Source of the DNA: Dehalococcoidia bacterium
GTDB taxonomy: Bacteria > Chloroflexota > Dehalococcoidia > Bin125
DNA: 64,000 nucleotides
Assembly: GCA_963555985.3 (NCBI GenBank)
Contig: OY820591.1
Coordinates: forward strand, 1,024,001 to 1,088,000
Reading direction: 5' to 3'
Each line of letters opens with the position of its first letter. Positions within the stretch are counted from its first letter, which is position 1. A model generated the notes under the pieces. The model saw nothing but the letters and a program-made list of their open reading frames with translations. It had not been told where the DNA came from and made no database searches. A program made the position numbers and the translations under genes. Positions 31,079 to 63,396 of the stretch are shown here, piece after piece.

Positions 31079-33139
31079 TTAGCCGCCTACCTCGATCGCA
31101 GAGCTTTGCAACCAACCGGTTGCACCGCTGCGCGCCGAGATATAGCGCGAGGTTGGCAGAATCCGTTCGCCGTCTGTTGGCCTGAAGGCAAACTCCGTTC
31201 TGCCGTCGGGCAGCAGACGCGCCTCGATCCGGCCGATTTCGACTCCCTCGACAACTATGGCGCTGGAAGCGAACCAGAACTGCCTTGACGGAGTGGCGGG
31301 GACGTACCGAACGCGAGGCATGATCCGCTCTCCGCCATTGATCTGAACGGCGAATTCGGTGCGACCGTCTCTCAGCCGACGCGCCACAATCCGCAAACTG
31401 ACCGCGTCGGCTTCCATCGCAGTGATGGTTTGCACAGTGATGGTTTGAGCCAGGCGCAGCCCCGCTGGTGGTTGCGTGGCGTCAGGACCGTTGTATCCCC
31501 AACATTCGACCGTACCAGCGATCGTCACACCGCAGCTATGGGAGTCGCCTGCGCTGACCTGAACGAAGACGCCGCTAGGCGGTGAGGCTTCTCCGTACTG
31601 GTTATCTCCCCAGCACACAATCTGGCCGTTGGTTTTCACGCCACAGTTGTGAGAGACGCCTGCACTGACTTGGACGAAGTCTCCGCTCGGCGGGCTCGCC
31701 CGACCGTAGGAATCTACCCCCCAACACTCGACCTCACCGTTGCTTGTCACACCGCAACCGTGTGTGCCGTCGATAAGCAAAGGACTCCCCGCGGCCCGCT
31801 GAGACCCACCCGCGCTTACTTGAAGGAAGTGCTCTGCCCGACCGGTTGGGAGGCCGTTAAGCAGGCCCCAACAGTGAGCAACGCCTGACCTCGTCACGCC
31901 GCAGCTATGGGCGGGGCCTGCACTAACCTGTGCAAAGCGTTCTGCTGGTGGATTGCTCCAAGACACTCCCCAGCACTGAACTTCGTCTGTGCTCGTAAGC
32001 CCGCAGCTATGGTGCTCGCCTGCACTGACTTGGATGAAGCTTCCACCTGGTGGACTCGCTTGTCCGAACTCGTCCAACCCCCAGCATTCGATTGTGCCTA
32101 CGTCTGTTACGCCACAGGTGTGGTCGCTGCCTGCGCTGACTTGTATGAAACTTCCATTCGGCGGGGTCGCTTGCCCAGAATCGCCGTACCCCCAACAGAG
32201 GACCGCCTCCGCGTCCGTCACTCCGCAACTATGATCCCTGCCTGCGCTGACCTGAGTGAAACGCGCATCTGGAGGACTCGTCCGACCTATTCCGTAATAC
32301 CCCCAGCATTCTACTGCTCCTTGGTTCGTGACGCCGCAACTGTGGCCGGTGCCCGCTGCGATCTGAGTAAAGCGTCCGCGTGGTGCGCTCGTTTGACCGT
32401 ATCGATCCCACCCCCAGCAGACGATCGTGTCGTCGGTCGTGACGCCGCAATTGTGGTAATCGCCCGCGCTGAGTCGGGAGAAGCGCCCTGCTGGCGGAGT
32501 AGCTTGGCCAACTTGATCGCCACCCCAACAGACGGCTGTCCTGTCGGCTGTGAGGCCGCAACTGTGGAGGCCACCTGCGCTGAGCTGAGTGAAGCGTTCT
32601 ACTGGTGGAGTCGCTTGGCCAAACCGATCGTTACCCCAACAGACAGCGGTGCCGTCGGCTTTGAGGCCACATGTGTGGTAACCGCCCGTGCTGACTTGGA
32701 TGAAGCGTTCTGCTGGTGGAGTCGCTTGGCCAAAGTAATCGTCACCCCAACAGACAACGGTGCCGTCTGCTTTGAGGCCGCATGTGTGATAACCGCCCGT
32801 GCTGACTTGGGTGAAGAGTCCTGTTGGCGGAGTCGCTCGGCCATATTGATATTGATCATTGCCCCAACAGGCCACCGCACCGTCGGTCGTGACGCCGCAA
32901 CTGCGATAACGTCCTGCGCTAACTTGGATGAAGATACGGCTCGGCGGACTCGCTTGGCCATACTCGTCATTGCCCCAACAGACGACAGCGTTGTCTTCGC
33001 TAACCGCGCAAGTGTGGTTGTATCCTGTGCTCAGCGTCTGACCGGCGAAGTCGGCGCGGGCGCTGTCGCTAGTCATCGTGAGCGCGAAGACGGTTGCGAT
33101 TGCGGCGAACGCTGCCGCGGCGAGCAAGCGAAGAGACAT
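31079..33139 (-). CDS. Secreted RCC1-like repeat protein (14 repeats) with two C-terminal DGRxEF modules
   Basis: Signal peptide; 14 ~37-aa QVSAG..HSCG...CWG repeats; C-terminal tandem module. Confidence 0.88.
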   Translation of the reverse strand: MSLRLLAAAAFAAIATVFALTMTSDSARADFAGQTLSTGYNHTCAVSEDNAVVCWGNDEYGQASPPSRIFIQVSAGRYRSCGVTTDGAVACWGNDQYQYGRATPPTGLFTQVSTGGYHTCGLKADGTVVCWGDDYFGQATPPAERFIQVSTGGYHTCGLKADGTAVCWGNDRFGQATPPVERFTQLSAGGLHSCGLTADRTAVCWGGDQVGQATPPAGRFSRLSAGDYHNCGVTTDDTIVCWGWDRYGQTSAPRGRFTQIAAGTGHSCGVTNQGAVECWGYYGIGRTSPPDARFTQVSAGRDHSCGVTDAEAVLCWGYGDSGQATPPNGSFIQVSAGSDHTCGVTDVGTIECWGLDEFGQASPPGGSFIQVSAGEHHSCGLTSTDEVQCWGVSWSNPPAERFAQVSAGPAHSCGVTRSGVAHCWGLLNGLPTGRAEHFLQVSAGGSQRAAGSPLLIDGTHGCGVTSNGEVECWGVDSYGRASPPSGDFVQVSAGVSHNCGVKTNGQIVCWGDNQYGEASPPSGVFVQVSAGDSHSCGVTIAGTVECWGYNGPDATQPPAGLRLAQTITVQTITAMEADAVSLRIVARRLRDGRTEFAVQINGGERIMPRVRYVPATPSRQFWFASSAIVVEGVEIGRIEARLLPDGRTEFAFRPTDGERILPTSRYISARSGATGWLQSSAIEVGG

Positions 33140-33188
33140 CGGTTACCTCGTTCCGGTGGTTGGAAAAGGAAATGCCGAGGTACCCGGC

Positions 33189-34240
33189 TCAGTTGCCGAT
33201 CCAGTTGTCATAGAGGTAGTTGACTGGATCGACGGCGTAGGAGTCGGACGCGCCATCGAGGATGTCGCAGGCGGGCGTCCCTGGTCGGGACACCTCAACG
33301 TGGACATGCAACCGGAACGTCACTGCGCCGCCCGCGCCCAGGCCGTCAGTGGTGCCGATTCTCTGGTACTGCTCCACGGAGTCCCCGACGCTGAGATGGC
33401 TGGACCTGACCCCGTGCAGGTAGCGTGTGATGTAGCCGTCGGAGTCCTTGATCGCGATCTGGCCGTAGCTGTCGCGGAGGCAGACGATCGTGCCCTCTGT
33501 CAGCGAATGGAAGCCGTGTTTCCTGGTGCCTTGGCTGTAGCGGTAGGAGTCCCAACCCGAATGCCCGCCTTGGTATCCGGCACGTGCATCGCTCGACTCA
33601 GTGCAGTTCCAACCGTCTGGGCAGTTCCCGTAGTCGTTGTAGGCGTATCGCAACTCTTCGCCGAACTGGTGCAGGGCGACTGCGAGGTCCCAGAGCTTGG
33701 TCGACCTAGCGACTTGGCTGGCGGCGGGGCGGGCGATCTCGATCCACGAACTGACCAGCCACTGGTTGACCGTCGCCCGGCGTGGGAAGTACCTCGCCGG
33801 CGGCAGGATGTCCTGATATCCCTCGACACGGAAGCCGAACTCCACGCGACCGTCGGGTGCACGGCGAGCGATGATTCTGCCCGCGTAGCCGTCGCCGAAG
33901 TCGATTTCAGTGCTCTGTAGCCAGTTGTTGTGATCCGGTCCGACGGCGGGGAAGTACCGCGCAGGCGGTAGGTACTGACGCCCGGCAGCGTCCCGCATCC
34001 CGAATTCGGTTCGCCCGTCGGAATTCCGCCGCGCGATGATGCGGACGGAGATCGTGTCTCCCGACGAGGCCTGCGCCTCCACCCTCGGCGTCAGCGGGCT
34101 GCGGACGCCTTCCGACCCACTCCCAAGCACACTCCATGCGATCGCACCCACCAGGACCATGGCGGAGAGCGCAATCCCTAGAACAAGGAGGCTACCCCCC
34201 CCCCCCCCCCCCCCCCCCCACGAATCTTTGTACTAAACAT
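33189..34240 (-). CDS. Secreted M23 family peptidase with two DGRxEF modules; leader frameshifted at a G25 tract
   Basis: HSGWD, YLH and HVH zinc motifs; annotated ORF is 33189..34160; hydrophobic leader continues in frame up to the poly-G; ATG 34240 would be in frame at G23 or G26. Confidence 0.75.
34195..34219. repeat. Homopolymer C25 (G25 on the coding strand)
   Basis: Direct count. Confidence 0.9.
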
Positions 34241-37665: not shown

Positions 37666-37893
37666 TCCACGCGGACTTCCTGAGCGCCAACGCCGGGTTC
37701 CAGCGCCACGGCCTGCGACCGCTCATGGCCTGATCGGAGATGGCGACGACGGCTAGCTGCCGGCACCGTCGTTGGTGGCGTTGGAGTCCGGGGGTGTGAG
37801 GGTGGAGGCAGAGCGCGCCCTTTGCCCAATCGGATACTCGTGTTAGGCTCCTGTGCGGCCCTTGTTTCGGTTGGAATACGGAGGAGGTTCTCG

Positions 37894-40194
37894 ATGTCGA
37901 AGGTGTGGGCAGGACAGCATCTGGCGGTTGTTGCCCTCGTCGCTTTGGCGTCCATTGTCACCTGGATAGTTTCGGGCGGGAGTGTTTGGGCTGGCGAAGC
38001 ATCGTCCGTTCTCACGCAAGAGAATGTGGCAACCCGCCCTTCGTCAAGTGAAATCTGTCAAACGTTCGACATCGACCTAAACCGCAGCATGACAGGGCGG
38101 TTGCCTCGAGAAAATTGCGAACACCACTACTATCTGACCCTCACGTCGCGGACCGCTGTCACGATTGACCTGGAATCCGACGACTTCAATGCGTTCCTGC
38201 GCTTGGATGACAATTGGGGGAACCCGATCACATACGACGACGACAGCGGGTCTGGTTCGAATGCGCGACTCGAATTGACCTTGGAACCTGCGACATATGA
38301 GGTCATTGTGCTCAGCGTCGCAGACAGTGGTTCCTACGAGCTCACCGTTGTAGGCCAAGCTGACGCTTCACCTCCATCCCCACCTCCGGCCCCGACTCCT
38401 GCTCCGTCTCCCACGACTTGGAGTTTGGTTGCTACGGGTAGTCCGTCTGGCGGTGGTCGCGTCGAGCATGCGTGCAACTTGGCCCATTGCAATGACAGGA
38501 TCTTTGGAACGAGCGACTATTTCGATGGCGGGACGGCAACCTTGACCGCCCAGCCCAATTCCGGATACCTATTCTCCCATTGGACTGGGGCCGCGACCGG
38601 GAGTAAGAATCCGACCACAGTCCATATGGACAGCGACAAATCTGTGACTGCAGTGTTCGTGCGCGACCGGGCTACGAGATACACGCTGACCGCGACCGCT
38701 GATCCGGCAGACGGTGCCGGTGGATATGTCGATATCGTGGGTGGGACAAAGGTGCGTGACGGCGTCAAAAGTTTCGCCGCAGGTGAAACCGCCTCAATCG
38801 TTGCCCGTGCAAATGCCGGTTGGCGTTTCGTACGCTGGTCGGGCGACACGACCGGAACTAGCGAGTCATTGAGCGTTGCGATGGACAGAAACAAAAACGT
38901 GAAGGCGATCTTTGAAGTCAACCCTTCGACTCGCAGCACATGCTACTTGTTTGGAGTAACACTACCTCACCAAATCAGCGGAGTGCTTGAGGCTAGTGAT
39001 TGTCAGGATACGCTCAGGAGAAACGGCTACTATGCTGACATATATTTCTTTACCTTGAACAAAAAGACTGAAGTTGTAATTAATCTTACCTCTAGTGTCT
39101 TCGACACCTTTCTCCAATTGCGACGGGCTGATGGTGACCGCGGTCGAGTCGCATACAATGATGACATCGAACGTGGGAACTTGAACTCGCGGATTGGTAC
39201 TGAGCTGGAGCCAGGGCAGTACCAAATTATTGCAAGTAGCTATAAGTCCGGAGCTTCGGGCAGATACCAATTGCAGATGGACTTCGTAGCAACCGCCTCG
39301 TTGGACGATCCAGCGGTTCGCCGAGTAATCGCCGAGAAATATCGACCGATCTTGTGGTTTCACGAAGATGAGAAATATTTCCCGGTTGCAGTTGAGGCAA
39401 TGACCCACTACTCAGTCCTCCATTGCGAGAGTGATTTTGTAACCGGCCCACCGGTTGATCCTGACTTGCTCGGCAAATTGGCAACTCGAGGTCTCTGCAA
39501 CTCTGAGAATGATTACTTAGACATGGGTGAATGGCAGAGGATTGTTATGAGAAACAATTGGTGGTTTGTGTTGGAATCCGATAATCCTGGCATCGGCGAT
39601 CCGGTTGTTTACTATCGCGTTGCAGAGATCGATGGCTGGGTTACAGTTCAATATTGGTTGTTTTATGTGTATAACGATGCCCCTTTCAGTAATCTAGTGT
39701 ATGATGGCGATCACGAAGGTGATTGGGAAGGCATACAACTTTGGTTTGCGCCATATGTTGACATAAGTGATATTGCTCTAGGGACTGTGGAACCCAGCGA
39801 AGTTGGTTTTGCGGCGCACGAGAGGGGGACCTACCCGAGTTGGCTTGTCAGCTACGTGGACGGTTACCGTCCTGAGGTGTATGTTGCCGAGGGTACTCAT
39901 GCGTCATATCACGCGCCAGGGGAATGGGCGATAAGAGCGAAGAAGGAGGTGTTGGGTAAAGATCTGGACTTAGGCGACGTGTGTACGGTAGACGATGAGG
40001 CGCGCCGAGGAGTAAAGCTTGAACAGTATAGGCTTGAATCGGTCGCGAATGCTTCGTGGCTGAGCTGGGACGGTCGCTGGGGGGCCGACGGTGGCCCGCA
40101 AGGCCCAGCCTCCGAGCCTAAGCCGCATTGGGAGAAACGTCCAACCCAGATTGAAGATTGGGTTCCGTTGATCCGTTCGTGCAGGCCGGACTAG
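37894..40194 (+). CDS. Secreted modular protein: PPC-like, Pro linker, 2 InlB-B-type repeats, PPC-like, Vps62/NPP1-like C-terminus
   Basis: GGAGGAGG before ATG 37894; signal peptide; DDDSG.GSNARL and NDD...LNSRI domains; A.PNSGY.FSHWTG...MDSDKSVTAVF repeats; QYWLFY.YND, HEGDWE, W.GRWG, GP.GP. Confidence 0.8.
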   Translation: MSKVWAGQHLAVVALVALASIVTWIVSGGSVWAGEASSVLTQENVATRPSSSEICQTFDIDLNRSMTGRLPRENCEHHYYLTLTSRTAVTIDLESDDFNAFLRLDDNWGNPITYDDDSGSGSNARLELTLEPATYEVIVLSVADSGSYELTVVGQADASPPSPPPAPTPAPSPTTWSLVATGSPSGGGRVEHACNLAHCNDRIFGTSDYFDGGTATLTAQPNSGYLFSHWTGAATGSKNPTTVHMDSDKSVTAVFVRDRATRYTLTATADPADGAGGYVDIVGGTKVRDGVKSFAAGETASIVARANAGWRFVRWSGDTTGTSESLSVAMDRNKNVKAIFEVNPSTRSTCYLFGVTLPHQISGVLEASDCQDTLRRNGYYADIYFFTLNKKTEVVINLTSSVFDTFLQLRRADGDRGRVAYNDDIERGNLNSRIGTELEPGQYQIIASSYKSGASGRYQLQMDFVATASLDDPAVRRVIAEKYRPILWFHEDEKYFPVAVEAMTHYSVLHCESDFVTGPPVDPDLLGKLATRGLCNSENDYLDMGEWQRIVMRNNWWFVLESDNPGIGDPVVYYRVAEIDGWVTVQYWLFYVYNDAPFSNLVYDGDHEGDWEGIQLWFAPYVDISDIALGTVEPSEVGFAAHERGTYPSWLVSYVDGYRPEVYVAEGTHASYHAPGEWAIRAKKEVLGKDLDLGDVCTVDDEARRGVKLEQYRLESVANASWLSWDGRWGADGGPQGPASEPKPHWEKRPTQIEDWVPLIRSCRPD

Positions 40195-40607: not shown

Positions 40608-41420
40608 ATGACCGACCACGACGACCCGCTCCCGCCCGCCCAACGCCTCAACGCCGACGCCGTCCGCTCCCGCCTTACCACTGCCCAGATCGGGCGCCAA
40701 CTCCACTACCTCCGCGTCACCAACTCCACCATGGACGACGCCCGCCGCCTCGCCGAAAGCGGCTGCCCCCACGGAACCACCGTCGTCGCCGACGAGCAGA
40801 CCGCCGGCCGCGGCACCAAAGGCCGCATCTGGGTCTCGCCTCCCGGCCAGAGCATCCACGCCACCCTCGTCGTCCGTCCCTCCGCCGACCAGCTGAAACG
40901 CCTCAGCATCATCACCCCCGTCGCCGCCTGCGAAGCCGTCGCCCGAACTAGCCCGCTCCAACCCACGATCAAGTGGCCCAACGACATCCAAATCGAACAC
41001 CGCAAACTCGGCGGCATCCTGATCGAAGCCGAGTGGGGCCGCAACCAACCCGACTACGCTCTGATCGGCATCGGCCTCAACGTCAACTTCGATCCCGCGC
41101 CCTGGGCAACCCAAATCGACCGCCCCGCTACCAGCCTCATGATCGAACTCGAAGCCCGCCAACAGCGCGAACCCGTCCTCGCCGAACTCCTCAACGCCTT
41201 CGAGACCGCCTACGAAGCCTGGGACAGCGAAGAACTTCACCAAGCCTGGAAATCCCGCCTCAGCACCCTCGGCCGCGACGTCCGCATCATCGGCCCCACC
41301 GGCGACGAGTTCGAAGGCCAAGCCGAAGACGTCAACCGCGACGGCGCCCTCCTCATCCGCAAGCCGGACGGAAATCTAGTCCCAGTCATCGCCGGCGAAG
41401 TCACCCTCCGCGATGCCTAA
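40608..41420 (+). CDS. birA: Biotin--[acetyl-CoA carboxylase] ligase (no HTH domain)
   Basis: STMD, QTAGRG..GR.W.SP, IKWPND, KLGGILIE, GIGLNVN. Confidence 0.95.
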   Translation: MTDHDDPLPPAQRLNADAVRSRLTTAQIGRQLHYLRVTNSTMDDARRLAESGCPHGTTVVADEQTAGRGTKGRIWVSPPGQSIHATLVVRPSADQLKRLSIITPVAACEAVARTSPLQPTIKWPNDIQIEHRKLGGILIEAEWGRNQPDYALIGIGLNVNFDPAPWATQIDRPATSLMIELEARQQREPVLAELLNAFETAYEAWDSEELHQAWKSRLSTLGRDVRIIGPTGDEFEGQAEDVNRDGALLIRKPDGNLVPVIAGEVTLRDA

Positions 41421-44400
41421 TCGAACCCCACAGGCGCAGGCAGCTGCACCGCCGCATCCTCCGCCTCTGGTGGGCGAACAACCCAGAGCACCTGCCCCGC
41501 CTCCAAGACGAGCGGCGGCCCTGGCAGGGCGTAGTAAGACCACGCGCCGTCGCCCCCAATCCACGCCCCTTGCACCGATCCGTCAAGCAACGTGGCCAAC
41601 TCCGACAAGAGCGTGCCCTCCGCGCCCGCAAAGGAAAGCTCGCTCAGGCCAGGACCAAGAACCATCTCAACAGGTTCAATCGCCGCAATCACGAGCAACG
41701 ACGGTCCGCGCAGCCGCACCTGGAGCCCCGTGCCAACCAAGGCAAGCGGGGCTTCGCTCCACTCCTGCGCAAGCAGATCGAAGGCAAAGGCTCGATAAGG
41801 CCCGCTAGCCTCGGGTACCGGAATCCGCACAGTCAACTCGACCGCATGGTCAATCGGCGTGCCGCGGCGATCTGAGACATCGATCCGCCACGCATCGACA
41901 AATCGGTTGCGGCCCTCGCCCGCCCATGCAGTACTCCACGCGCGAGGGAAGAACTCCTCCAGCCGAGCAAACCGCTCAACTCGTTCGACCTGCAGCCGCC
42001 ACATCTCCAGCTTCGATTCCGCCGCCAGATTCGCGTTCAGCCGAACACTCGCGGCGACACCGCCCTGCGCGATCCGCGTTAGTTCTGGTTCATGCTCGAG
42101 TTCCTCATCCGGCCAAGCGATCGCCGCGCTCAGTCCGTCGCCGGACAACTCGCGCAAGAGCTCCCGGCGCAACGCTGCATCGTCGCCCTCCGCCCGCAGC
42201 CGCGCCGCCTCAATCCGCTCTGACCACCCGTCTGCCCGCTCGGTCAGATTCACAACCTCAATTGCCGCCGACTCCATAAGCTTGTCGTCTAAATCTCTGA
42301 CGCCGCTGCCGTCCTCGGGCGCGAGATAGCGCAGCTCAACAGCGTCGAGCGCTGTGATCCGCTCAGCAAGCGTGAGCAGCAAGGCAGACGACCGCCACTC
42401 CAGCGACGACACCTCGAGCCGTCGCCGGCCCGCAATCACTAAGAACTGCTCTGCATCCGTCAGTCCCGGTTCGATTCGCTGATCGAATTCGACCTCAATG
42501 GCGGCGGCATCCGCACTGGCGGACACCATTGAAGGCGGCGTCTGCGTCACGTTGAGCGGCACGATCACGGAGCTTGCCACCCGATGTCCCGCCAAACCTG
42601 CCAAGCCGCCTCTCTCGCGGGCCAGATAGATCAGCGCCGGCTGGTCTTCGTCGCGGAGCGGCTGCGCAAGCTCAAGAAGCACCGTGCTGCCGCCGACAAT
42701 CACTTCGGCGATATCCAACTCCCGATCGTCCCCGAGCGACACAACCCACTGGCTGCGCGTGGAGCCAAGATCGAGCAGCGGCTGATCGAACAGGATCAGC
42801 ACCATCTCACGGCTGCCGTAGGCCGCGGTCATTCGCGGGGCTTGGCCCAACTCGTTGACTGCGACTCGAAATGGGGCGACCGCACCTTCGCTCCCACGCA
42901 GAGCCTCGCCGTCATAATGCAGAACAAGATCGTCGCGCGGCCCTGCCCCGGGAGCAGCCAATCTGAGCGACAAACGCGCACCGCTGATGTTCGTCACCGC
43001 AGTGACGTCCGGTGCGTGGGTCAGCTCGAATGCGCTCGCTTCGGGCAATGGAACAGCGGAGAGCGCCTGATCGAAGACGATGGCCAACTCGCGCAGATTC
43101 ACTGTCGCCGACAGCGGACAAGGAGCGGCTCGGTCGATGAGCCGGTTGAGCGAGAACGCTGCCAAGCCGCCTCCGCCTGTATAAGTGACCGCCACGGCAT
43201 CACCCAAACAGACGACGCGATCGAGGGTCAGCGCGACTCGCCCTTCGTCGATCGAGACGCTCGCAACCGTACCCTCCTCCCCGCCAACAGCGGCATTCCA
43301 GTTCTTCTTCGTCACGCTCGCAGGAGGCGTTTCAAAGTCGAGAAGCAGCTTCTTGCCTTCCGCTCGCAGACAGCTCAATCCCGCCGCCGCTGCAATCAGA
43401 TTGCTGACTCTGATCTCAAACGAGACGACCGCATATCCCTTGCCGTCCAACCATGGCTGCGTTTGAGCACTGCGGTAGACCAAGCGCACTCCAACGCATT
43501 CCGGTATCGGACGATCCAGAAGGAGCGTGAGCGACGAATCATCGACAGCCGCGCTCTGTAGCGCCAGCTCGACCTCACCTGCGTAGACGACGAATGCGCC
43601 CAGCGAGGGCGCACTGCCGCTCGCCAGAGCAGCGTCGAATGTCATGTTGATTTGCCGTCGATTGGATGTATCCACCGCCGCCGATACGGGAGCTGCCGCG
43701 ATCCGGTTGGCGACCGAAAACGCTTCGAATTGCTTTACCCGATTGTGTGATTCCGAAGTGTCGCGCAATTCCCATTCGGGACGCTCTGGCACGTGGGGGC
43801 GAGTGTACGAAGTCGTGATGACCTCGGTGCTGGACGCCTGTCCGGCTAGTGTCAATATGACGGCGCCGCTCTCGATCTCGACCTGCGTCAGCGCAATCCC
43901 CGCTTCTCCTGCGAAGACCTCGAACCATACCGCCGGCTCAGCGATGCCGTCCGGCGCGCAGATCGCGTCATACAGCTCAGCCGGCTCGTTCTCTTTCACC
44001 CACTCACAACTGGGGGGCGGCACGGCCTGTTCATCAAGCGCCTGATCGAACTGAATCGTCAACGTTTGCGCCTGAATCCACGCATGCTCCGCGATCGGTG
44101 CGACGTCAGTCCGATTCTCTACAGCAATCGTGAAGCTCGCGACCAGATTTGGAAGATCGTCGTCCTGGAGACTGTCTGTTTTGGGCGGGTTGTACGCTAG
44201 TGTCACTGCTTCGCCTTCGCGCAAGGGCCGGTCGTTGGTCAGCGTCAGAGTCAAGACGCTGCCGACGATCTCCTGATTGTCGACAACCGCGCCGCCACTG
44301 AGCTCGAATCTGTCGTTCGGCGGCTTCTTGCCCGGATTGAGATCCTGATCGAACACGACCGTGATCTCCGTACCCGTCTCGTTGGAGGCGGCGGCCACCG

Positions 44401-47400
44401 GAAACGGCGCATAGTCGGTCTCATTTTCGATCGAGGCGCTGAAGCCGGCGACGAGATTGCCGGATCCATCCCGAAGGCCATTCGTGTCGGGAACCGTATA
44501 CGTCAGGCTCAGATTGGCGTCTTCCACGACGCTCTGTTCCAGGGAAAGCGTTGCCGCAGCGCCTGCAATCGTCACGCTGTCTACCGCAGGGGCGCCGCTA
44601 CCCAAGTCGAACGCTGCCGTCTCAGGAGTGTGCGCTGTGGACAGCGGCTGGTCGAACGTGACCGTGACCGCCTCTCCATCGGCAACGGCGCCGACGAATA
44701 CGGGTGCGGTGTCGGTCAGATTGCTCAGTTGGTACTGGTCGATCTGGGCGCGATTTTGTCCTGGATCGTCGTCCCGGATCAAAGCAGAACCGTACGAAGG
44801 ATCGTAATCCAGCGAGACGGTATCCAGCTCATGGACAGCTGTGTCCAACGTGATCTGCAACCTGCCTGCGCCGCCCGAAGCGTCGTTCGAAAGCGCAATC
44901 GCGTCCACCGATACGGCTGCGCGGATGCCGCTGATCGTGAAGTGATCCGTTGGAATCGCTCTGGTCTCCAGGTACAGCGACTGGTCGAAGTCGAGTTTGA
45001 TCGCCGTGCCATTCACCGTCCCCGACAGCGGCACTGGCGCGGTGTCGGTGTGATTCTCGAGCTCGATCGCGCTGATGCTGACCGAATTGCCTTCAGGGTC
45101 CGCCATCCGCGTGGATGCTGTGGTTGGTGCGTACGTCAGGGAAAGCTCCTCGTCTTCGGCCAGCGCCGGACTGACTGTCAGCTTGACCACGCCCTGACCA
45201 TTGATGTTTTCGAGGCTCGCGGCGGTGACCTGATGCGCTGACGAACTTGTGCTGAATTCGGATGTGGATGGCTGACGCGCCAGCTCAAGCGTCTGATCGA
45301 AGACCAACCGGACACTCGTCAGCGCAGCCAATGCCTCAATCAGCACTGGAGGCGTGTCCGTCTGATTCGCCACGCTCAGACGGTGTCGCGCATCATCGGA
45401 GTCGAAACCAAGCACGTGGAGCGAATTGGCTCCGCGCAGCCGCGTGTTGCCGTCATCCGCCGGCCGATGCCGAATGCGCACATCAGCGTCTTCGATGAGA
45501 GCGCTATCCAGGGTCAAGGAGACGAGCTGCGACGAGAGCGCCACCGTCAGCGGTGGGGTCGCGTCATCAATCACGAACGAGCTTGTCAGCGGAATAGCCT
45601 CCTGATCGAGCGCGCTGTCGAAGGCGATCGCCAGTTCGCGTCCGTTCGCAGTCGCCGATATTGGCAGAGGAGGACCGGCGTGTTCGGCCTCGAAGGCGGA
45701 GAAACTCGCCGTGAGATTCTCGCTCAGGTCGCGCAAGCCGTAATCGGAGTCTTGCGTATACGTCGCGGTGACGACCTCCCCCCTCCGCGCGACACTCGAC
45801 AACCGCAGCACCACCTGAACTCCACTGACTTTGACTGCGGTCACATCTCGCTCGACGTCGGCGACCGTGACGCTGAAGGCGCTGATCCCGGGATAAACGC
45901 CTTCATTGAGCGTCTGGTCAAAGAAAATCGTGATACCAGCGCCGGAAACTGTAGCCCGCTGAGGCGCCGGAGCCGTATCGGTCTCATTCGTGATCGCCAG
46001 CGTGAATGCCGGGACAGCCGTACCGGTCTGGTCAATCAGATTTCCGGTTCGCGCCGGAGCGTACGCCACAGTAGCCAACTCGGATTCCCGAAAATCAGGT
46101 GATACCTGCACCGAGACGGTTGATCCGCTCACCTCAAGTGATGTCGGGATGGCCGTCGTTCCGCTGAGCGTGAACTGGGCGATGTCCACATCAGCGGTTT
46201 CGTCCAGGGGCTGATCAAATGTCAGCGTCAGCGTCGAGCCATTCGCGGTGGCGCTGGTCGCATTGGTGGGTGTTTCGGTTTCGTTCGTCAGGGAGAGCTT
46301 CGCAATCGTTGCTGCATTCCCTTCCGGATCGACAATCCCCGAATCCCCGGACGGAGTGAAGGTGAGCGTGACCGAAACGCCTTCGCGCACGCTTGCAGAG
46401 AGCCTGAGCACCAACACCCCCCGCGTCGTCTCGCTGTCGTTGGCAAGCGAGACCGATGAAACGCTGCGGCTCGGAACGAGACTGAAACCGGAGGCGTCCG
46501 GCTGTGTATCAAGATCAAGGTCCTGGTCGAAGCGAAGTTCGACTCGGTCTCCGTTGATCTGCGCGGACAGCACTCGCGGCGACGTATCGACCTGATTGTC
46601 AATCGCGCGCTCTGTCCACGCCTCCACCTGAAGCTTGCCCTGATCTAGATCCCTCAGGCGCGCCGCCGTTGGGTCTTTCGGAGGCGTATAGGAGAGCTTG
46701 CCCGCATCTGTTTCGTGCAACGTCGGAGAGAGCGTGAGCGTAACTGCGGAGCCGCTGACCGAGACCTCCGTGGCCGCGGCCTTGGTCCCTGTCAGCGTGA
46801 AGCTCGAAGCCGACGGTGTGCCGGCCGTGTCTTCGCGCAGCGTCTCGGAGAACCGCAGGCTCAGCGAGCCTCCGTCTCCCTCGGCGATCACACTTGTGAG
46901 TCGAGGAGCGTCGTCGGTTTCATTCGTGACGGCGAGCGAAAATGCCGCTAGCGCAGTGCCGGTCGTATCGACCAGTGCGTCAACATTGGGCGGGCTGTAA
47001 CTCACCGTCAGGGCGTCTCCATCAGTAAGCGCTGGTGAGATCGTCAATGTCACTACGGCGCCTTTGATCGCGACAGTTTGGACGGTCGCGGCGGGAACGG
47101 AGACGGTGAACGACGAGGCAGCCGGAACGACTTCTTCGTTGAGGGACTGATCGAACGTGATTCGTATGGCGCCCCCGTTTCCGATAGCGCGAGTAGCGGT
47201 TGTCGGCGTGTCCGTCCGATTCGTGAGCGCGAGGTCTTGGATGCTTGCCGCATTGCCTTCGGGATCGACGATCTGGGAGTCGCCATCTGGGCTGAAGTTC
47301 AGCGTCACTGTGTCGCCCTCTCGGACAGCCTTCGCCAACGTGAGTTCAAGCAGGCCCCGGCTACTCGATCCGCTGTTCGTCAGCGACACGGAGGACATCG

Positions 47401-50179
47401 ATCTGGACGGCGACAAGCTGAACCCTGAGGTTGCCGGCTGCTTCGTGAGGTCCAGATCTTGGTCGAACTCGATCCGTACCGCTGTCCCGTTCACCTCGCC
47501 TGATACGACGCGCGGCGCCGTATCGACCTGATTGTCGATCGTTTCGCCAGTCCAATCTGCAACTGCCAGCGTTCCCTGATCGGCGTCCCGCAGCCGCGGC
47601 GATCCCTGATCGGTCGGCTGTGCATAGCCGATGGACGCGGAGTCCGTCTCGTGCAGCGCCGGGGAGACGGCGAGCACGACTTCCCGACCACTCATCGACA
47701 CACCGCTCACCTGCGCCGCGGTTCCGCTGAGCGTGAAGGTCGTCCCTGCTGGTGTCGACGAGGCGGCCGCGCTCAGTGGTTCGGAGAATCGGAGCGTGAT
47801 CTGCGACCCACTACCCGTCGCGCTCGCGCTGACCAGGCTCGGCGCGTCGTCGGTCTGATTGACGACCGCGACATCGCTGAACGCCGCTACTGCGAGGCCG
47901 TTTTGCCCATTGAGCGGGGCGTCGGACGACGGCGCGAACGTCAAGCTCATGCTGGCCCCGTCGGACACGGCTGCGGCCAACTTGAGTGTGACAGTGCGCG
48001 TCGCAATCGTGAGCTCGGAGACGGACGAATCTGAGCCGTCCACCTTGGCGCTGAACGCGCTCGTTGAGACGGACGAGTTCGAGTCGAGATCAGCATCGAA
48101 GAGGATGCTGAGGGTGTCGCCGTTGACCGTCAGACTGGTGGGAGCCGGGGCGCTGACGGTCAGGTTCGTAACCGCAAAAGCGCTGATGTCCGCCACCTCT
48201 TGTGCGCCGCCGGCGCGTCGCAGCGGCTTGGAGTCGGGCGCGGTGTAGCTCAGAGCAATTGTCTCTCCTTCGACCACGCTGCTTGAGAGAGTCAGCGCCG
48301 CCGTGCGATCGCTGATCGTCAACGAAACGACCGTCGCCTCCGTCCCGGTCAGCGCGAACGCTGTGCTCGCCGGTATCTCCGTGGACTCAAGCGGGCGATC
48401 GAACACCAGGAGCAGGATGTCGCTTGCTACGTTGGCGCTGCTGAGGCGAGGCACGCCGTCGGCGCTATTGGCGACCGCGTAGTCACTCCAGGCCGCCACC
48501 GGATACTGGCCGTCGGCGCTTGAGAGGCGGGCGGCGTTGGCTCCGGTTGCAGGCGTATAGCCAAGCGTGATCACTTCGCCCGTATCGGCCAAGGGGCTGA
48601 GTGTGAGGCTGACTTCGGAACCGGAGACGCTAACACTCGTGATCGTCGCGCTCGTCCCGGTCAGAGTGAATGTGCTTGCCGCCGGCGTGCCGGCGCTGGT
48701 ATCTAGGAGCGAGTCGGAGAAACCCAGTGTGAGCGTGGTCCCCGCCGCGTTGATGCCGGCAGTGCTCAAGGTCGGGGCCGGGTCGGAGGTGTTGTTGACC
48801 ACCGCCTGATTCGAGAACGTCTCCACATCCCTGCTGTTGCGCCCGACCAGTTTGTGCGGGCTCGCTGATGGTTCCGTGTAAGACAGCGTGATCACATCAG
48901 TGTGAGACACCGCTGCGGAGAGCGTCAGCGTGACCACTGCTGCGGTAAACGCTGTTGCGCTCACGCTCAGTCCGCTGACGCCGCTGACCGCGAAGGCGCT
49001 CGCTTCCGCAACCGACCGCAGCGGCAGATCGAACGTTAAGGTCAGGGTGGAGCCGTCCACCGCCGCCGCCGACACTACGGGCGCTGTTTTCGGCGTTTCA
49101 TGGACTACTTCAAGACTGCTGAAGCGGTCCACGCTGTGCGTCTTCTCGCGATCCCGCAGGGACGGCGAATCTCCCGTCGCCTCGAAGTAGAAGAAGAATG
49201 TGTCCACACTGATCGGGACGATTCCGGACAGGCTCAACGTCACCGTTGAACCCTCAATCGACACTCCGGTGACGCTTGGTGGGAAGGTCACCTGATTGCC
49301 GAAACGCCAGGAATCGGTTGTCGGCACACTTGCCGGATCGAGCGCTTGATCGAAAGTGACCGTGATCTGTTCGTAGAGGGCGGTCCCGGCAGTCGCGACA
49401 GGGGCGGTGTCGGTGTGATTCGTGACAGAAAGCTCCGTCCAGCTTGGGACAAGCTGCCTCCCTTGATCGGCATCGCGCAGTTCTTTGTCATAATCCGCAG
49501 AAGAGCGATCGTAGGACAGCAACACCTGCTCTCCTTGCGTCAGTCCCCGTCTCGATTGCAACAGGATCGTGACCGTATCTGAACCGAATCGAACATCGTT
49601 GATGACCGGGTTGCTCTTTGCAGCCTCGATCTCGAACGCATCCACCGAAGACCACCAACTAATCGCTCCCAAGTCCTCGCAGAACGTGATGATGATCCTG
49701 TCACCGGCGGTGTTCGTGACGATGCTCTCAACCGCAGGCGGCAAATCCGTCTGATTCGTAACCGCTTGATCTGAGAATGCAGCCACCGATTCACCGTTTG
49801 CTCCGAGCAGCGGCCGCTGCGCCGGAACCTCGTAACTCACTACCACCGCCGACCGATCGCAATCCGGGTCGGGCGCGCTCTCACTGAGCGTCAGCGTGAC
49901 AGCTGTCCCTGCAACAGCGACGCTGGAGACCGATCTAGCCTCTGTGCCCGCCGCGACGCTGAATGCGCTCGCCGCTGGGATCGAAGAGGTATCCAGCGAG
50001 GCGTCGAAGCTCAGCGTCAGCGATGTTCCTGTAACCGAAGCCGAGGTTACCGACGGTATCGTTGCTGCCTCCGCTTGCTCAACTGTGAGCGAGCACATCG
50101 CGCGTGCCCAGACAAGAACAAGACTGAGGCAGAACAGCCAGGTGAGCGCAGAGGCATTGACCTGGCGAAAGGCAGCCAA
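41417..50179 (-). CDS. Giant (~2920 aa) surface protein with SwmB-type repeats
   Basis: Roughly 25 ~100-aa repeats (AP...A.VNG..LTLTFDQ.LD...P..S.F...VTLTL...Y......L.D..G..V..F...N.TD). Start placed at TTG 50179 before a signal-like segment, because the ORF-track start 50323 overlaps the upstream gene. Confidence 0.82.
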   Translation of the reverse strand: MAAFRQVNASALTWLFCLSLVLVWARAMCSLTVEQAEAATIPSVTSASVTGTSLTLSFDASLDTSSIPAASAFSVAAGTEARSVSSVAVAGTAVTLTLSESAPDPDCDRSAVVVSYEVPAQRPLLGANGESVAAFSDQAVTNQTDLPPAVESIVTNTAGDRIIITFCEDLGAISWWSSVDAFEIEAAKSNPVINDVRFGSDTVTILLQSRRGLTQGEQVLLSYDRSSADYDKELRDADQGRQLVPSWTELSVTNHTDTAPVATAGTALYEQITVTFDQALDPASVPTTDSWRFGNQVTFPPSVTGVSIEGSTVTLSLSGIVPISVDTFFFYFEATGDSPSLRDREKTHSVDRFSSLEVVHETPKTAPVVSAAAVDGSTLTLTFDLPLRSVAEASAFAVSGVSGLSVSATAFTAAVVTLTLSAAVSHTDVITLSYTEPSASPHKLVGRNSRDVETFSNQAVVNNTSDPAPTLSTAGINAAGTTLTLGFSDSLLDTSAGTPAASTFTLTGTSATITSVSVSGSEVSLTLSPLADTGEVITLGYTPATGANAARLSSADGQYPVAAWSDYAVANSADGVPRLSSANVASDILLLVFDRPLESTEIPASTAFALTGTEATVVSLTISDRTAALTLSSSVVEGETIALSYTAPDSKPLRRAGGAQEVADISAFAVTNLTVSAPAPTSLTVNGDTLSILFDADLDSNSSVSTSAFSAKVDGSDSSVSELTIATRTVTLKLAAAVSDGASMSLTFAPSSDAPLNGQNGLAVAAFSDVAVVNQTDDAPSLVSASATGSGSQITLRFSEPLSAAASSTPAGTTFTLSGTAAQVSGVSMSGREVVLAVSPALHETDSASIGYAQPTDQGSPRLRDADQGTLAVADWTGETIDNQVDTAPRVVSGEVNGTAVRIEFDQDLDLTKQPATSGFSLSPSRSMSSVSLTNSGSSSRGLLELTLAKAVREGDTVTLNFSPDGDSQIVDPEGNAASIQDLALTNRTDTPTTATRAIGNGGAIRITFDQSLNEEVVPAASSFTVSVPAATVQTVAIKGAVVTLTISPALTDGDALTVSYSPPNVDALVDTTGTALAAFSLAVTNETDDAPRLTSVIAEGDGGSLSLRFSETLREDTAGTPSASSFTLTGTKAAATEVSVSGSAVTLTLSPTLHETDAGKLSYTPPKDPTAARLRDLDQGKLQVEAWTERAIDNQVDTSPRVLSAQINGDRVELRFDQDLDLDTQPDASGFSLVPSRSVSSVSLANDSETTRGVLVLRLSASVREGVSVTLTFTPSGDSGIVDPEGNAATIAKLSLTNETETPTNATSATANGSTLTLTFDQPLDETADVDIAQFTLSGTTAIPTSLEVSGSTVSVQVSPDFRESELATVAYAPARTGNLIDQTGTAVPAFTLAITNETDTAPAPQRATVSGAGITIFFDQTLNEGVYPGISAFSVTVADVERDVTAVKVSGVQVVLRLSSVARRGEVVTATYTQDSDYGLRDLSENLTASFSAFEAEHAGPPLPISATANGRELAIAFDSALDQEAIPLTSSFVIDDATPPLTVALSSQLVSLTLDSALIEDADVRIRHRPADDGNTRLRGANSLHVLGFDSDDARHRLSVANQTDTPPVLIEALAALTSVRLVFDQTLELARQPSTSEFSTSSSAHQVTAASLENINGQGVVKLTVSPALAEDEELSLTYAPTTASTRMADPEGNSVSISAIELENHTDTAPVPLSGTVNGTAIKLDFDQSLYLETRAIPTDHFTISGIRAAVSVDAIALSNDASGGAGRLQITLDTAVHELDTVSLDYDPSYGSALIRDDDPGQNRAQIDQYQLSNLTDTAPVFVGAVADGEAVTVTFDQPLSTAHTPETAAFDLGSGAPAVDSVTIAGAAATLSLEQSVVEDANLSLTYTVPDTNGLRDGSGNLVAGFSASIENETDYAPFPVAAASNETGTEITVVFDQDLNPGKKPPNDRFELSGGAVVDNQEIVGSVLTLTLTNDRPLREGEAVTLAYNPPKTDSLQDDDLPNLVASFTIAVENRTDVAPIAEHAWIQAQTLTIQFDQALDEQAVPPPSCEWVKENEPAELYDAICAPDGIAEPAVWFEVFAGEAGIALTQVEIESGAVILTLAGQASSTEVITTSYTRPHVPERPEWELRDTSESHNRVKQFEAFSVANRIAAAPVSAAVDTSNRRQINMTFDAALASGSAPSLGAFVVYAGEVELALQSAAVDDSSLTLLLDRPIPECVGVRLVYRSAQTQPWLDGKGYAVVSFEIRVSNLIAAAAGLSCLRAEGKKLLLDFETPPASVTKKNWNAAVGGEEGTVASVSIDEGRVALTLDRVVCLGDAVAVTYTGGGGLAAFSLNRLIDRAAPCPLSATVNLRELAIVFDQALSAVPLPEASAFELTHAPDVTAVTNISGARLSLRLAAPGAGPRDDLVLHYDGEALRGSEGAVAPFRVAVNELGQAPRMTAAYGSREMVLILFDQPLLDLGSTRSQWVVSLGDDRELDIAEVIVGGSTVLLELAQPLRDEDQPALIYLARERGGLAGLAGHRVASSVIVPLNVTQTPPSMVSASADAAAIEVEFDQRIEPGLTDAEQFLVIAGRRRLEVSSLEWRSSALLLTLAERITALDAVELRYLAPEDGSGVRDLDDKLMESAAIEVVNLTERADGWSERIEAARLRAEGDDAALRRELLRELSGDGLSAAIAWPDEELEHEPELTRIAQGGVAASVRLNANLAAESKLEMWRLQVERVERFARLEEFFPRAWSTAWAGEGRNRFVDAWRIDVSDRRGTPIDHAVELTVRIPVPEASGPYRAFAFDLLAQEWSEAPLALVGTGLQVRLRGPSLLVIAAIEPVEMVLGPGLSELSFAGAEGTLLSELATLLDGSVQGAWIGGDGAWSYYALPGPPLVLEAGQVLWVVRPPEAEDAAVQLPAPVGFD

Positions 50180-50187
50180 TCGCGCCG

Positions 50188-50964
50188 CTAGCGCCCCGAC
50201 CAGTTCGGGGCGCGCTTCTCCACGAACGCGAGCGGCCCTTCTTTGGCGTCCTCGGAGTTGAGCACGACGCGGCTGACCCACTGTCCGGTGCGGTAGGACT
50301 CGTCGATCATCAGTTGCCGCCACTGATGGGCCATGAACTTGGTGCCCTCAACCGCCAGGGGCGCGTTTTCGGCGATCATTTCGGCGATCGCGATCGCTCG
50401 CGGCAGCAGCTGATCGGGTTCGAGGATTTCGCGGATCAGGCCCATGCGCAGGGCTTCTGCGGGCGAAATGCGGTCGGCGGTGAGCATGATGTAGAGCGCG
50501 TCGCCGATCGGCAGCATCCGCGCGAGGTGGTGAATGGCGTAGCCGGGCATGATCCCGCGCTTGACCTCGAACAGTCCGAAGTAGGCTTCCGTCGAAGCGA
50601 TCCGAATGTCGCAATCGAGGGCGCGTTCGAGGCCGCCGGCCAGACAGAGGCCGTTGATGGCGGCGATGAACGGCTTGCGGCAGCGCGCGAAGGGCATCGA
50701 ATCATTCAGATCGAAGCCCATCGTGTCGCGCAGACCATCGCGCGACTGATTCTGCTCGTTCATCTCTTTGAGGTCGGTGCCGGCTGAGAAGGCGCGCCCG
50801 GTACCGGTCAGGATCGCGGCGCGGATCTCCGGGTCGTTCTCCAGATCCTCGACCGCCTCGATCGTCAAGCGGCGCAGATCGCGGCCGAGCGCGTTCAGGC
50901 GGTGGGGACGGTTCATCGTCAGCACGGCGTAGTGGCCGAACTTTTCGTAGATCAGGTCAGGCAT
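50188..50964 (-). CDS. Enoyl-CoA hydratase/isomerase
   Basis: NRP.RLNAL, FSAGTDL, AAING.CLAGGLE.AL.CD, FEVKRG, EGP.AF.EKR.P.W. Confidence 0.93.
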   Translation of the reverse strand: MPDLIYEKFGHYAVLTMNRPHRLNALGRDLRRLTIEAVEDLENDPEIRAAILTGTGRAFSAGTDLKEMNEQNQSRDGLRDTMGFDLNDSMPFARCRKPFIAAINGLCLAGGLERALDCDIRIASTEAYFGLFEVKRGIMPGYAIHHLARMLPIGDALYIMLTADRISPAEALRMGLIREILEPDQLLPRAIAIAEMIAENAPLAVEGTKFMAHQWRQLMIDESYRTGQWVSRVVLNSEDAKEGPLAFVEKRAPNWSGR

Positions 50965-54349: not shown

Positions 54350-55555
54350 CTACGGCGTGAACTCGATCTCGCTGCTGCGCAGCCAGTGCCCGACCGTTGC
54401 GTTCGTGGGGAAGAATCGCGCTTGAGGCAGGATTCGCTCGCCGGAGGCGACGAAGCCGAACTCGATCCGGCCTCCAGCGGTCAGTCTCGCGGCGATCCGG
54501 CCCCAGTCTTCCACGTCACTGCTGAGCAGCCAGACGCCCACGCGCGCGGTTGTGGGGAAGTATCGGCGCGTCGGGAGGATCAGCTCGCCGTCGCTCGTGC
54601 GGAATCCGAACTCCACTCGTCCGTCCGCGCCCAATCGCGCCACGATTCTGCCGACGACCGCCGGGTTTTCGAACGCGACCGCGTCGTCGGGCGAACCCGT
54701 GGGCGGCGGATCGTCCGCCGGCTCTGTGCCTCCCCAGCAGATCGCACCACCCGCGGCAACGACGCCGCAGGACCAGTCGCGGCCGGCGCTGATCTGGGTG
54801 AAGCGCGTCTGCGGCGGCTCGTGCTCGCCCGCGCCCCAACAGGACGCCGTACCGTTCGCGGCCAATGCGCAGGTATGGGACTCGCCCGCGCTGACCGACT
54901 CGAAGCGACCACTCGGCGGCGAGGCTTGGCCGAATGCATTGTCGCCCCAACAGGCGATCCGTCCATTCGTGCGCACGGCGCAGGCGTGCGATGTCGCCGC
55001 GCTGACCGAGGTGAATGTTCCACTTGGGGTTTGCAGCTCGCCGACGCGATCCCAACCCCAGCAGAAGAGCGCGCCGGCCGTGGTCACGCCGCAGCTGTAG
55101 AGGTGTCCCGCGTCGATGCTGCGGTACGTCTCTGCCGGCACCTCGAGGAAGCCCCAGTCGATCCCGCTGCCCCAACAGACGCCCGCGCCGGACTCGCGAA
55201 TGGCGCAGCTATGCGACGCGCCCGCGCCAATCTGGGTGAATCGTCCCGGCGGCGCGTCTATCTGCCGCGATTCGTTCCGCCCCCAGCATCGAATCTCGCT
55301 GTCGTCGGTCAGGGCGCAGGTGAAGTCGTCGCCGACCGCGACCGCGCTGTAGCTGCCGGACGGCACGTTGAGCTGCCCGTATTCGTTGCCGCCCTCGCAC
55401 TCGAGCGAGCCGTCGTCGTAGAGGTAACAGACGTGGCTGTCGCCGGCGCTAACGGCGACGATCGTTCCGTCTGCGTGGGCCGATGATCCCAGCGTCCAGA
55501 TCGCCGACAGCACAACCACTAACACCAACGCCGCGCCAGGAACCCGATGTCGCAT
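54350..55555 (-). CDS. Secreted RCC1-like repeat protein (7 repeats) with two C-terminal DGRxEF modules
   Basis: Signal peptide (AHA-DG); 7 VSAG..H.C...CWG repeats; Pro linker; tandem module. Confidence 0.88.
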   Translation of the reverse strand: MRHRVPGAALVLVVVLSAIWTLGSSAHADGTIVAVSAGDSHVCYLYDDGSLECEGGNEYGQLNVPSGSYSAVAVGDDFTCALTDDSEIRCWGRNESRQIDAPPGRFTQIGAGASHSCAIRESGAGVCWGSGIDWGFLEVPAETYRSIDAGHLYSCGVTTAGALFCWGWDRVGELQTPSGTFTSVSAATSHACAVRTNGRIACWGDNAFGQASPPSGRFESVSAGESHTCALAANGTASCWGAGEHEPPQTRFTQISAGRDWSCGVVAAGGAICWGGTEPADDPPPTGSPDDAVAFENPAVVGRIVARLGADGRVEFGFRTSDGELILPTRRYFPTTARVGVWLLSSDVEDWGRIAARLTAGGRIEFGFVASGERILPQARFFPTNATVGHWLRSSEIEFTP

Positions 55556-60120: not shown

Positions 60121-60145
60121 AAGAGAGTTGAGAAAGGTTCACAAC

Positions 60146-62610: not shown

Positions 62611-62673
62611 GCGCTGCGTTGATACCATGACGCGCACGAGCGTTGGTATCGAGCAGACGGAGGGCGAGTCACG

Positions 62674-63396
62674 ATGTCGCAACGAGCCAAACTGTTGGGT
62701 GTCGCCGCAATCGGCGTCATTATCGGAGCGGCGGCGCTGGCCGTCGTCGCCGCGATGGGGCATGGATCCGAGGTTGAGATCCAGGCGCGGCGGCACGCCG
62801 ACGGGCGGGTCGAGGTGGCGCTCAAGGACAGCGACGGACAGCGTCATCTGCCGGAACAGCGATTCCTCGCGCCCGACGCGACCGAGGGAGTCTGGCACTC
62901 CAGCACGCCGCTAGAGATCGCCGACTCCGAGGCTGTAGATCCGGCCGCCGTGGGCGCCACCGCGACCGCGCGGATGCACGGCCCCGACGGGACCGAGATG
63001 GGCCAGGTCACGCTGATCCAGGGACCGCGCGGCGTCCTCATCCAGGCGCGGCTGAGCGGCGTGCCGGAGGGTTGGCATGGATTCCACATCCACGAAACGG
63101 GATCCTGCGAGCCGGACTTCTCGGCCGCCGGCGGCCATTACAACCCGATGGGCATCGGCCACGGCGTCCTGCATGAGGACGGGCATCACCCGGGCGACAC
63201 GGTCAACGTCTACGCCCACGCCGACGGCACGGCCAACGCCGACCAGTACACGGTCGATGCGACGCTGGGTTCGGGCGCGACCACACTGTTCGACGCCGAC
63301 GGCTCGGCGATCATCGTCCACGAGGGCCCGGACAGCTACGGCGCAGACCCCGGCGCGGGCGCGCGGATCGCCTGCGGCGTGATCACGCTGAACTGA
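62674..63396 (+). CDS. sodC: Secreted Cu/Zn superoxide dismutase with one N-terminal DGRxE module
   Basis: Signal/TM segment; HGFHIHE.G.C, GGHYNP, HG...H.GD, IIVH, RIACGVI. Confidence 0.92.
   Translation: MSQRAKLLGVAAIGVIIGAAALAVVAAMGHGSEVEIQARRHADGRVEVALKDSDGQRHLPEQRFLAPDATEGVWHSSTPLEIADSEAVDPAAVGATATARMHGPDGTEMGQVTLIQGPRGVLIQARLSGVPEGWHGFHIHETGSCEPDFSAAGGHYNPMGIGHGVLHEDGHHPGDTVNVYAHADGTANADQYTVDATLGSGATTLFDADGSAIIVHEGPDSYGADPGAGARIACGVITLN

Follow-up and report, generated by a model that had tools for sequence, protein, structure and literature searches.

A portable repeat module of exported proteins in Chloroflexota and Actinomycetota and its probable role as a non-covalent surface anchor

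In single-membrane cells, substrate-binding proteins need an anchor, which is normally a lipid. LysM, SH3b, PG_binding and similar domains bind the wall when attached to M23 peptidases, amidases or carboxypeptidases, and SLH and CWB2 domains are mainly helical. The passages of PMC5817068 that deal with these domains describe SLH and CWB2 as short repeats that bind the wall non-covalently, stand at either end of diverse secreted proteins and act as trimers, and the CWB1 choline-binding repeat as a unit of about 20 residues needed in three or more copies. Here we analyze a stretch of 64,000 nucleotides from a Dehalococcoidia genome (contig OY820591.1, positions 1,024,001 to 1,088,000; hereafter, the window), in which four proteins carry a repeated module of about 50 residues. 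The module is a real, large and uncatalogued family, SLH- or LysM-like in behavior and a member of neither, and we propose that it probably serves as a non-covalent surface anchor of exported proteins in single-membrane bacteria.

An initial annotation of the window had counted seven copies, seen them only in exported proteins and described the module as portable and able to sit at either protein end. A six-frame regular-expression scan of the window returns exactly seven full copies, at the same places, and none extra; they are 34–51% identical to the first copy, with 10 invariant columns in the alignment of all seven. A hidden Markov model (HMM) built from these copies alone finds 42 domains in 34 open reading frames (ORFs) of the source genome (hereafter, G000). 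Iterated to convergence over all six-frame ORFs, it finds 44 domains in 35 ORFs, 33 of them on the main contig and two, near-duplicates, on small contigs. Because the accepted copies (independent E-value ≤ 1.8e-10) stand well clear of the next match (1.2e-3) and are recovered genome-wide, the motif is not a product of chance. Among genes passing a crude gene caller, an N-terminal hydrophobic segment is found in 31 of the 33 module genes versus 374 of 2967 others (Fisher p 1.6e-25), which bears out the restriction to exported proteins. The two module genes missed by the leader rule do show a leader on inspection, one of them being cut off by a frameshift inside the module.

The function of the module is suggested by its exchange with the lipid anchor in orthologous proteins, which points to anchoring. 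The bacteria concerned are single-membrane cells; in the part of PMC10284905 that treats their envelopes, Tepidiforma is described with a membrane, with peptidoglycan and also with an S-layer, and other Dehalococcoidia orders as having lost peptidoglycan genes. In three families of binding proteins of G000, a lipobox is present in 36 of 38 module-less members versus at most one, ambiguous, of 18 module-bearing members, a count that leaves out a second regular-expression match lying behind the module. Orthologs of an iron-binding protein were located in 29 of 31 genomes: 26 have a lipobox without a module (25 by regular expression, one by eye), three have a module pair and a cleavable-looking signal without a lipobox, and none has both or neither. 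The two states occur even inside one genus. The module-bearing iron-binding gene of G000 adjoins genes for a 12-helix permease and an ATPase, so its product must stay near the membrane. As an independent case, an SBP_bac_5 protein (P0212) is 73% identical to a Tat-lipoprotein of G000 and has the same twin-arginine leader, with no lipobox cysteine and with a C-terminal module pair, and a Peripla_BP_6 protein (P0221) has a module pair without a lipobox. At 30 SodC loci we find the module in 11, a second module (type B, see below) in one, a lipobox in six and none of these in 12, and in no case module and lipobox together. Among 127 database carriers with a hydrophobic N-terminus there is a single, ambiguous lipobox. 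Since lgt is present in 31/31 genomes and lspA in 29/31, the module is an alternative to the lipid anchor rather than a rescue, and replacement of a lost lipoprotein pathway is ruled out.

Structure prediction suggests how the copies may build such an anchor, and here the picture goes beyond the initial annotation: the predicted unit is the pair, and lone copies are predicted to dimerize. The module pair of the window's M23-type peptidase is modeled as all beta, with no helix (pLDDT 92.8, pTM 0.85), the two copies being predicted to form one small beta domain. When the single module of the window's SodC is modeled with itself, the dimer scores 0.89 in three runs (best of three controls, 0.02), with 111–116 contacts, at least 98% of them common to the runs, and pLDDT 94. 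Among solved structures, that mark was attained by 20 of 30 homodimers and 1 of 23 monomers, counts that apply only approximately to the alignment made here. The lone SodC copy is thereby predicted to form an intertwined homodimer, residues 3–8 of one chain contacting residues 43–49 of the other and I5, A7, V15, V17 and L19 making up the core.

We propose the following mechanism. The carrier has an export signal, mostly of the cleavable Sec type in pair carriers and almost never a lipobox. Two copies would then co-fold, with the opening strand of a copy laid against its partner's W-x-x-S strand, such that a tandem pair would complete the domain within one chain and single copies would have to dimerize. 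As the lipobox exchange suggests, the completed domain would bind near the outer face of the membrane and take the place of the lipid. Its ligand would most likely be an envelope glycopolymer or a wall or S-layer component common to these bacteria; peptidoglycan may be one ligand, though not the own-cell ligand everywhere. Single-copy carriers may additionally keep their hydrophobic leader as a membrane anchor.

The most conserved positions among 515 distinct copies are E (99%), R (97%), P (96%), W (95%), S (94%), A (93%) and G (92%). The initial annotation had read the conserved arginine and aromatic residues as suited to an anionic ligand. Mean net charge is +1.6 and +2.0 per repeat in pairs and −1.0 in single copies, for which that argument is weak. 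Some of the invariant residues are probably structural.

On the main contig of G000, 18 of the 33 carriers are substrate-binding proteins (16 Peripla_BP_4, one iron-type, one Peripla_BP_6), and in the regions viewed no sugar-type permease directly adjoins the Peripla_BP_4 carriers; the remaining carriers have trypsin, Cache, AhpC or propeller domains, or no known domain. When 1.84 billion cluster representatives were searched with the profile, 1,716 matched at E 0.001 and 1,363 at 1e-10. In the best 150 of the 1,716, a set that favors multi-copy proteins, the module stands at the N-terminus in 121, at the C-terminus in 16, near both ends or over the whole protein in 11 and in the interior in two; a simple rule detects a hydrophobic N-terminus in 117. 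These carriers hold two copies (129), four (16), three (4) or five (1). A Pfam scan of 92 of them recognizes cargo domains that include RCC1, LRR, ankyrin, trypsin, cadherin, fn3, CAP, M10 and Amidase_3. Wall-enzyme carriers have M23, Amidase_3 or VanY domains, and the module also flanks a LysM. For a set of 155 hits, of which 120 are listed, the names given by the sources are confined, among those listed, to hypothetical protein, S1C protease, iron transport binding protein and a label of the chloride-channel family.

Several arrangements of carriers stand apart. Two adjacent paralogs (L001:2748-4388, minus strand; also L024-L041) combine an N-terminal domain of about 100 residues, itself unknown, with a C-terminal module pair, and a relative of these is retained with its gene neighborhood in 18 loci. 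In G000, a module fragment lies directly behind an RCC1-like gene (C1:1744928-1745071, minus strand) and another carrier has its module split by a frameshift (C1:2348652-2349293, plus strand), both reflecting decay or assembly error.

The four carrier proteins of the window are listed in Table 1. The two RCC1-repeat proteins match Pfam RCC1_2 (protein 1, E 6e-107 in 14 stretches; protein 2, E 2e-42) and SodC matches Sod_Cu (E 2e-33). The peptidase matches Peptidase_M23 at E 3.8e-6 with 27.4 bits, slightly below the 28.7 cut-off; HxxxD and HxH motifs, which we take to be its zinc motifs, can be read in the translation of its catalytic domain. Leaders are found on the four proteins, as the initial annotation had stated, with a qualification for the peptidase: its leader is interrupted by a tract of 25 G, which shifts the upstream ATG into another frame and leaves the assembled in-frame ORF with part of a signal peptide only. 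One short-read contig, which may derive from the source sample, crosses the tract without gaps, and the tract is a candidate phase-variation switch. G000 has nine G/C runs of at least 10 nucleotides, seven of which (the tract in Table 1 and C1:2017496, 3097255, 526586, 529600, 2103836 and 1287458) lie near the 5′ end of exported-protein genes, three of these being module carriers; phase variation of surface proteins is the likely meaning of these runs.

Table 1. Module-bearing proteins of the window, their module copies and the interrupted leader of the peptidase
Feature	Position in window	Strand	Remarks
Secreted RCC1-repeat protein 1, 686 aa	31079..33139	-	Signal peptide ends A-R-A; C-terminal module pair
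RCC1 protein 1, module copy 1 of pair (aa 582-629)	31253..31396	-	Regular expression, HMM, alignment
RCC1 protein 1, module copy 2 of pair (aa 636-683)	31091..31234	-	Regular expression, HMM, alignment
M23-type peptidase, in-frame ORF starting at internal ATG	33189..34160	-	Module pair, then catalytic domain
M23 protein, module copy 1 of pair (aa 39-87)	33900..34046	-	HMM; pair used for folding
M23 protein, module copy 2 of pair (aa 94-141)	33738..33881	-	HMM; pair used for folding
Upstream ATG (34240) and 25-G tract (34195-34219) in M23 leader	34195..34240	-	Out of frame as assembled
Secreted RCC1-repeat protein 2, 401 aa	54350..55555	-	Signal peptide ends A-H-A; C-terminal module pair
RCC1 protein 2, module copy 1 of pair (aa 302-349)	54509..54652	-	HMM, alignment
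RCC1 protein 2, module copy 2 of pair (aa 352-398)	54362..54502	-	HMM, alignment
Cu/Zn superoxide dismutase SodC, 240 aa	62674..63396	+	Hydrophobic leader, single module, Sod_Cu domain; no lipobox
SodC single module copy (aa 34-81)	62773..62916	+	HMM; predicted intertwined homodimer

Catalogue searches uphold the view that the module belongs to no described family. Pfam has no match for any of the 42 copies (best E 0.045, at most one member per family) or on three tandem pairs, NCBIfam none for the 42 copies (best E 0.046), PHROGs nothing at E 0.1 for seven module queries, and the ESM Atlas no usable match. The sole sequence lead in the PDB is a partial likeness to a hairpin of the PLL lectin (5c9l; E 0.003, profile positions 7–29). 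Among the papers listed by full-text literature searches, none describes the module in its title or the opening of its abstract, and a bulk protein catalogue may contain the family as a cluster without a name. With the pair as query, Foldseek returned nothing at E 0.001 in the PDB or in viral models. The top rows of the structural search contain no propeller, SH3b or LysM, an absence that is no proof of a new fold. The best of 48,161 full structural alignments, to Tsp1 (7cwj; Z 5.8, rmsd 3.8, 96 residues aligned), matches the whole pair with a single beta domain, as does the alignment to a Sulfolobus SlaA domain (7zcx; Z 5.7, rmsd 3.5, 94 residues aligned). Both matches are weak, at 6–12% identity; Z values below 8 may reflect a common arrangement only, and no function follows from them.

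The initial annotation had called the module lineage-specific, which proves wrong, with expansions in several families of Dehalococcoidia and in one whole family of Acidimicrobiales. Named relatives come from Dehalococcoidia or Chloroflexota metagenome-assembled genomes, one Acidimicrobiales genome of the same kind and two unclassified bins. In a first sample, 12 of 18 genomes of the window's family carry the module, with 2 to 64 matches each; in the class sample, where counts stop at 16 per genome, it occurs in 63 of 401 genomes, among them 24 of the 25 from the window's family, and its occurrence in the others is patchy. The Acidimicrobiales genome (Actinomycetota; hereafter, G409) has 45 matches spread along one chromosome. 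Its class has the module in 2 of 301 genomes, and its family in 21 of 21, including both unclassified bins, with between 8 and 63 matches per genome. In a phylum sample, 9 of 401 genomes have it. A tree built from 67 pairs (107 columns) requires three changes of phylum label, two of them forced by strongly supported branches. Outside the expansions, other families carry the module on one shared gene. It encodes an uncharacterized protein of about 850 residues with a C-terminal pair, common to Dehalococcoidia families and a genome of G409's class (L166-L186; G038, G105, G128, G270, G228, G079, G004, G157, G177, G595); between two families its dS is only 0.3–0.44, which suggests recent transfer. 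According to the relevant part of PMC11706023, bins prefixed APA and SB0661 are tied to sponges and GPP34 is a sponge-symbiont marker. GPP34 is matched four times in G000 and four times in G409, but in none of three relatives without the module. Judged from name prefixes and GPP34, the hosts of the module are probably uncultured sponge-dwelling bacteria of two phyla.

A number of observations weigh against the anchor proposal. The lipobox count in G000 is mostly one paralog expansion of single-copy carriers, for which reason orthologs were compared instead, and the independent swaps are few (about three binding-protein families plus SodC), kin not being independent. Three Acidimicrobiales SodC proteins have neither lipobox nor module, and by a crude count most exported non-lipoproteins of G000 do without the module (27 with, 115 without). 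A strict cleavage motif is found in 7 of 67 single-copy carriers versus 113 of 204 pair-bearing proteins, and the module lies nearer to the hydrophobic stretch in the former than in the latter. As the leaders of single-copy carriers differ in these ways, an uncleaved helix, and not the module, may anchor them; by eye, many of them show a plausible cleavage site. SLH is also present in 4 of the 92 carriers scanned, and nearly bare proteins of a signal peptide and one module exist, 112 residues long in L044 and G409 (L044:936-1271, minus strand; G409 C1:1265642-1265977, plus strand), which are possible partner subunits or blockers. Finally, five genomes negative for murA are also negative for murG, yet they keep the pair on the shared protein of about 850 residues, where it is under purifying selection (dN/dS 0.44, 0.19 and 0.14 in three genome pairs; 0.27, 0.26 and 0.30 for the rest of the gene).

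This retention under selection indicates that the cell's own peptidoglycan is not required, and it weakens peptidoglycan as an obligatory ligand of the producer. The wider pattern of murA fits a wall ligand: it scores above the cut-off in all sampled genomes of the expanded lineages and below it in 11 sampled genomes from four low-copy families. A pyruvylated ligand of the SLH type is rejected, the CsaB pyruvyl-transferase family PF04230 being found in 0 of 37 genomes, with the control positive in 9 of 14. No candidate partner gene appears among the conserved neighbors of the best-conserved carrier, which look metabolic apart from a transporter, and neither a partner nor a ligand gene among the 81 G000 genes at least 50% identical to genes of G409, a comparison over 1.6 of 3.5 Mb and not a full profile. 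From its motif we take C1:2232549-2233622 (minus strand) of G000 to be a sortase-like gene; no clear sortase-type tail was seen among 150 database carriers.

Persistence of the pair where murA and murG are not found would also suit a ligand outside the cell. The pair might bind a host or community molecule, such as sponge matrix glycan or the walls of neighbors, and place effectors in host tissue. The spread of the module across phyla, with the label changes of the pair tree, follows apparent habitat and not descent, GPP34 accompanies it in G000 and G409, and domains of the RCC1, LRR, ankyrin, cadherin and fn3 kinds abound among its cargo. The weak hairpin likeness to the PLL lectin blade would agree with such a role, yet it spans less than half of the module. 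Moreover, an iron-binding protein encoded beside its permease and ATPase would gain little from a host matrix, and it nevertheless exchanged its lipobox for the pair. We consider this explanation unlikely.

Distinctly unlikely, in our judgment, is that the module is a dimerization, spacer or folding unit only, single copies dimerizing tethered sensors or enzymes and pairs forming stalks. The strong predicted homodimer of the SodC copy would be expected under this explanation, as would single copies that are net negative and close behind a hydrophobic leader, and many of the invariant residues could be structural. A self-completed pair, however, could not dimerize its carrier, and pairs dominate outside the G000 expansion (in G409, over the 1.6 of 3.5 Mb covered, 15 of 18 module ORFs); pairs, too, are what replaces the lipobox, and those at a C-terminus are not spacers. 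Of the two roles named in the initial annotation, anchoring is supported by the module/lipobox exchange. Sorting, in which a machine dedicated to transport or attachment would recognize the module as a tag and carry cargo across the wall or S-layer, as with the C-terminal domain of type IX secretion, is very unlikely: a small beta domain on diverse exported cargo and a second module behaving likewise in overlapping genomes would agree with it, but the module works at either end and in one to five copies, persists on one gene in many lineages and has no partner gene in the conserved neighbors or, in part, the genes common to G409.

The surface-anchor proposal has a bolder form, which we regard as possible, if rather unlikely. 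The binding unit would arise only on intertwining, and mixed dimers could form at the surface between single-copy carriers, of which one cell has more than 20 (orphan sugar-type binding proteins, SodC, a Cache protein, a protease). Sponge symbionts of two phyla would have the ligand, a polymer, in common, so that genes for anchored effectors could stay functional when passed from one phylum to the other; the second module, unrelated in sequence, would be a parallel address on the same fold. The module offers a concrete handle on protein retention at the Chloroflexota surface, which is almost unstudied, and on the display of eukaryote-like repeat proteins by sponge symbionts, being an easily expressed domain of 105 residues that two phyla attach to proteases and to RCC1, LRR, ankyrin and cadherin cargo. 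Once its ligand is found, a molecule of the envelope or the host that this community has in common would be identified. If the module is a surface anchor, it would represent a new non-covalent family whose fold is intertwined, two-fold and without a clear structural relative, and a rare natural case in which ABC binding proteins gave up their lipid anchor in favor of a binding domain.

The second (type B) module was met as a 56-residue insert in the module slot of one SodC ortholog (L112:1255-1419, plus strand; also L135-L164). It is about 56 residues long, its consensus starts VEVRVWQ, and its placement, pairing and types of cargo match those of the first module: single or paired, it is attached to RCC1, LRR, ankyrin and Ig domains. 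Of 401 class genomes, 24 contain it, some of them together with the first module; it is not found in G000 and has no Pfam match. The model of a type B pair (pLDDT 91.9) resembles that of the first module in strand pattern, and the two have some weak structural neighbors in common. Comparison of the profiles does not show homology between the two (hhalign probability 29% over 11 columns for singles, 0.2% for pairs). Other terminal motifs recur on exported module-less proteins of G000 and are possibly further anchoring modules: an N-terminal L-x-x-G-x-N-x-x-x-W type and a C-terminal P-G-x-x-D-F type (C1:787138-788880, 801417-805277, 843962-846244, 1866900-1868612, 705503-708367, 719949-722327 and 726887-728635). 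The window itself encodes two proteins that appear exported and have no module, a giant SWM_repeat/Big_5 protein with 23 repeats (41417-50323, minus strand) and a PPC/InlB-B/Vps62-like protein (37822-40194, plus strand).

Set against described systems, the module fits the functional class of non-covalent wall-binding domains in export, portability and use of either terminus, and in excluding other anchors from orthologs, with the exception of SLH in 4 of 92 carriers. Like SLH (PF00395) and CWB2, it is a short repeat at either end of diverse secreted proteins that is predicted to act as a multi-repeat unit. Unlike their helical trimer of three repeats, its unit is predicted to be all beta and two-fold, made of two repeats. 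It has no SLH profile match and no motif of the ITRAE type, as that motif is given in the SLH passages of PMC5817068, and SLH was not found in G000; SLH needs a CsaB-pyruvylated polymer, whereas PF04230 was found in none of 37 genomes. On M23 peptidases, amidases and carboxypeptidases the module occupies the same slot as CWB1, LysM, SH3b and PG_binding, and it differs from the peptidoglycan-binding LysM, SH3b and PG_binding domains in persisting in murA/murG-negative genomes. Its likeness to the PLL lectin blade is weak and lies in a DGRxEVF-type hairpin at positions 7–29 only, its own model being a two-repeat domain to which no propeller is clearly similar in structure. A further functional counterpart may be the lipoprotein anchor of Lgt and LspA, which apparently does the same job and is mutually exclusive with the module in orthologs; that anchor is a covalent lipid, whereas the module would be an anchor carried by the protein itself and acting non-covalently.

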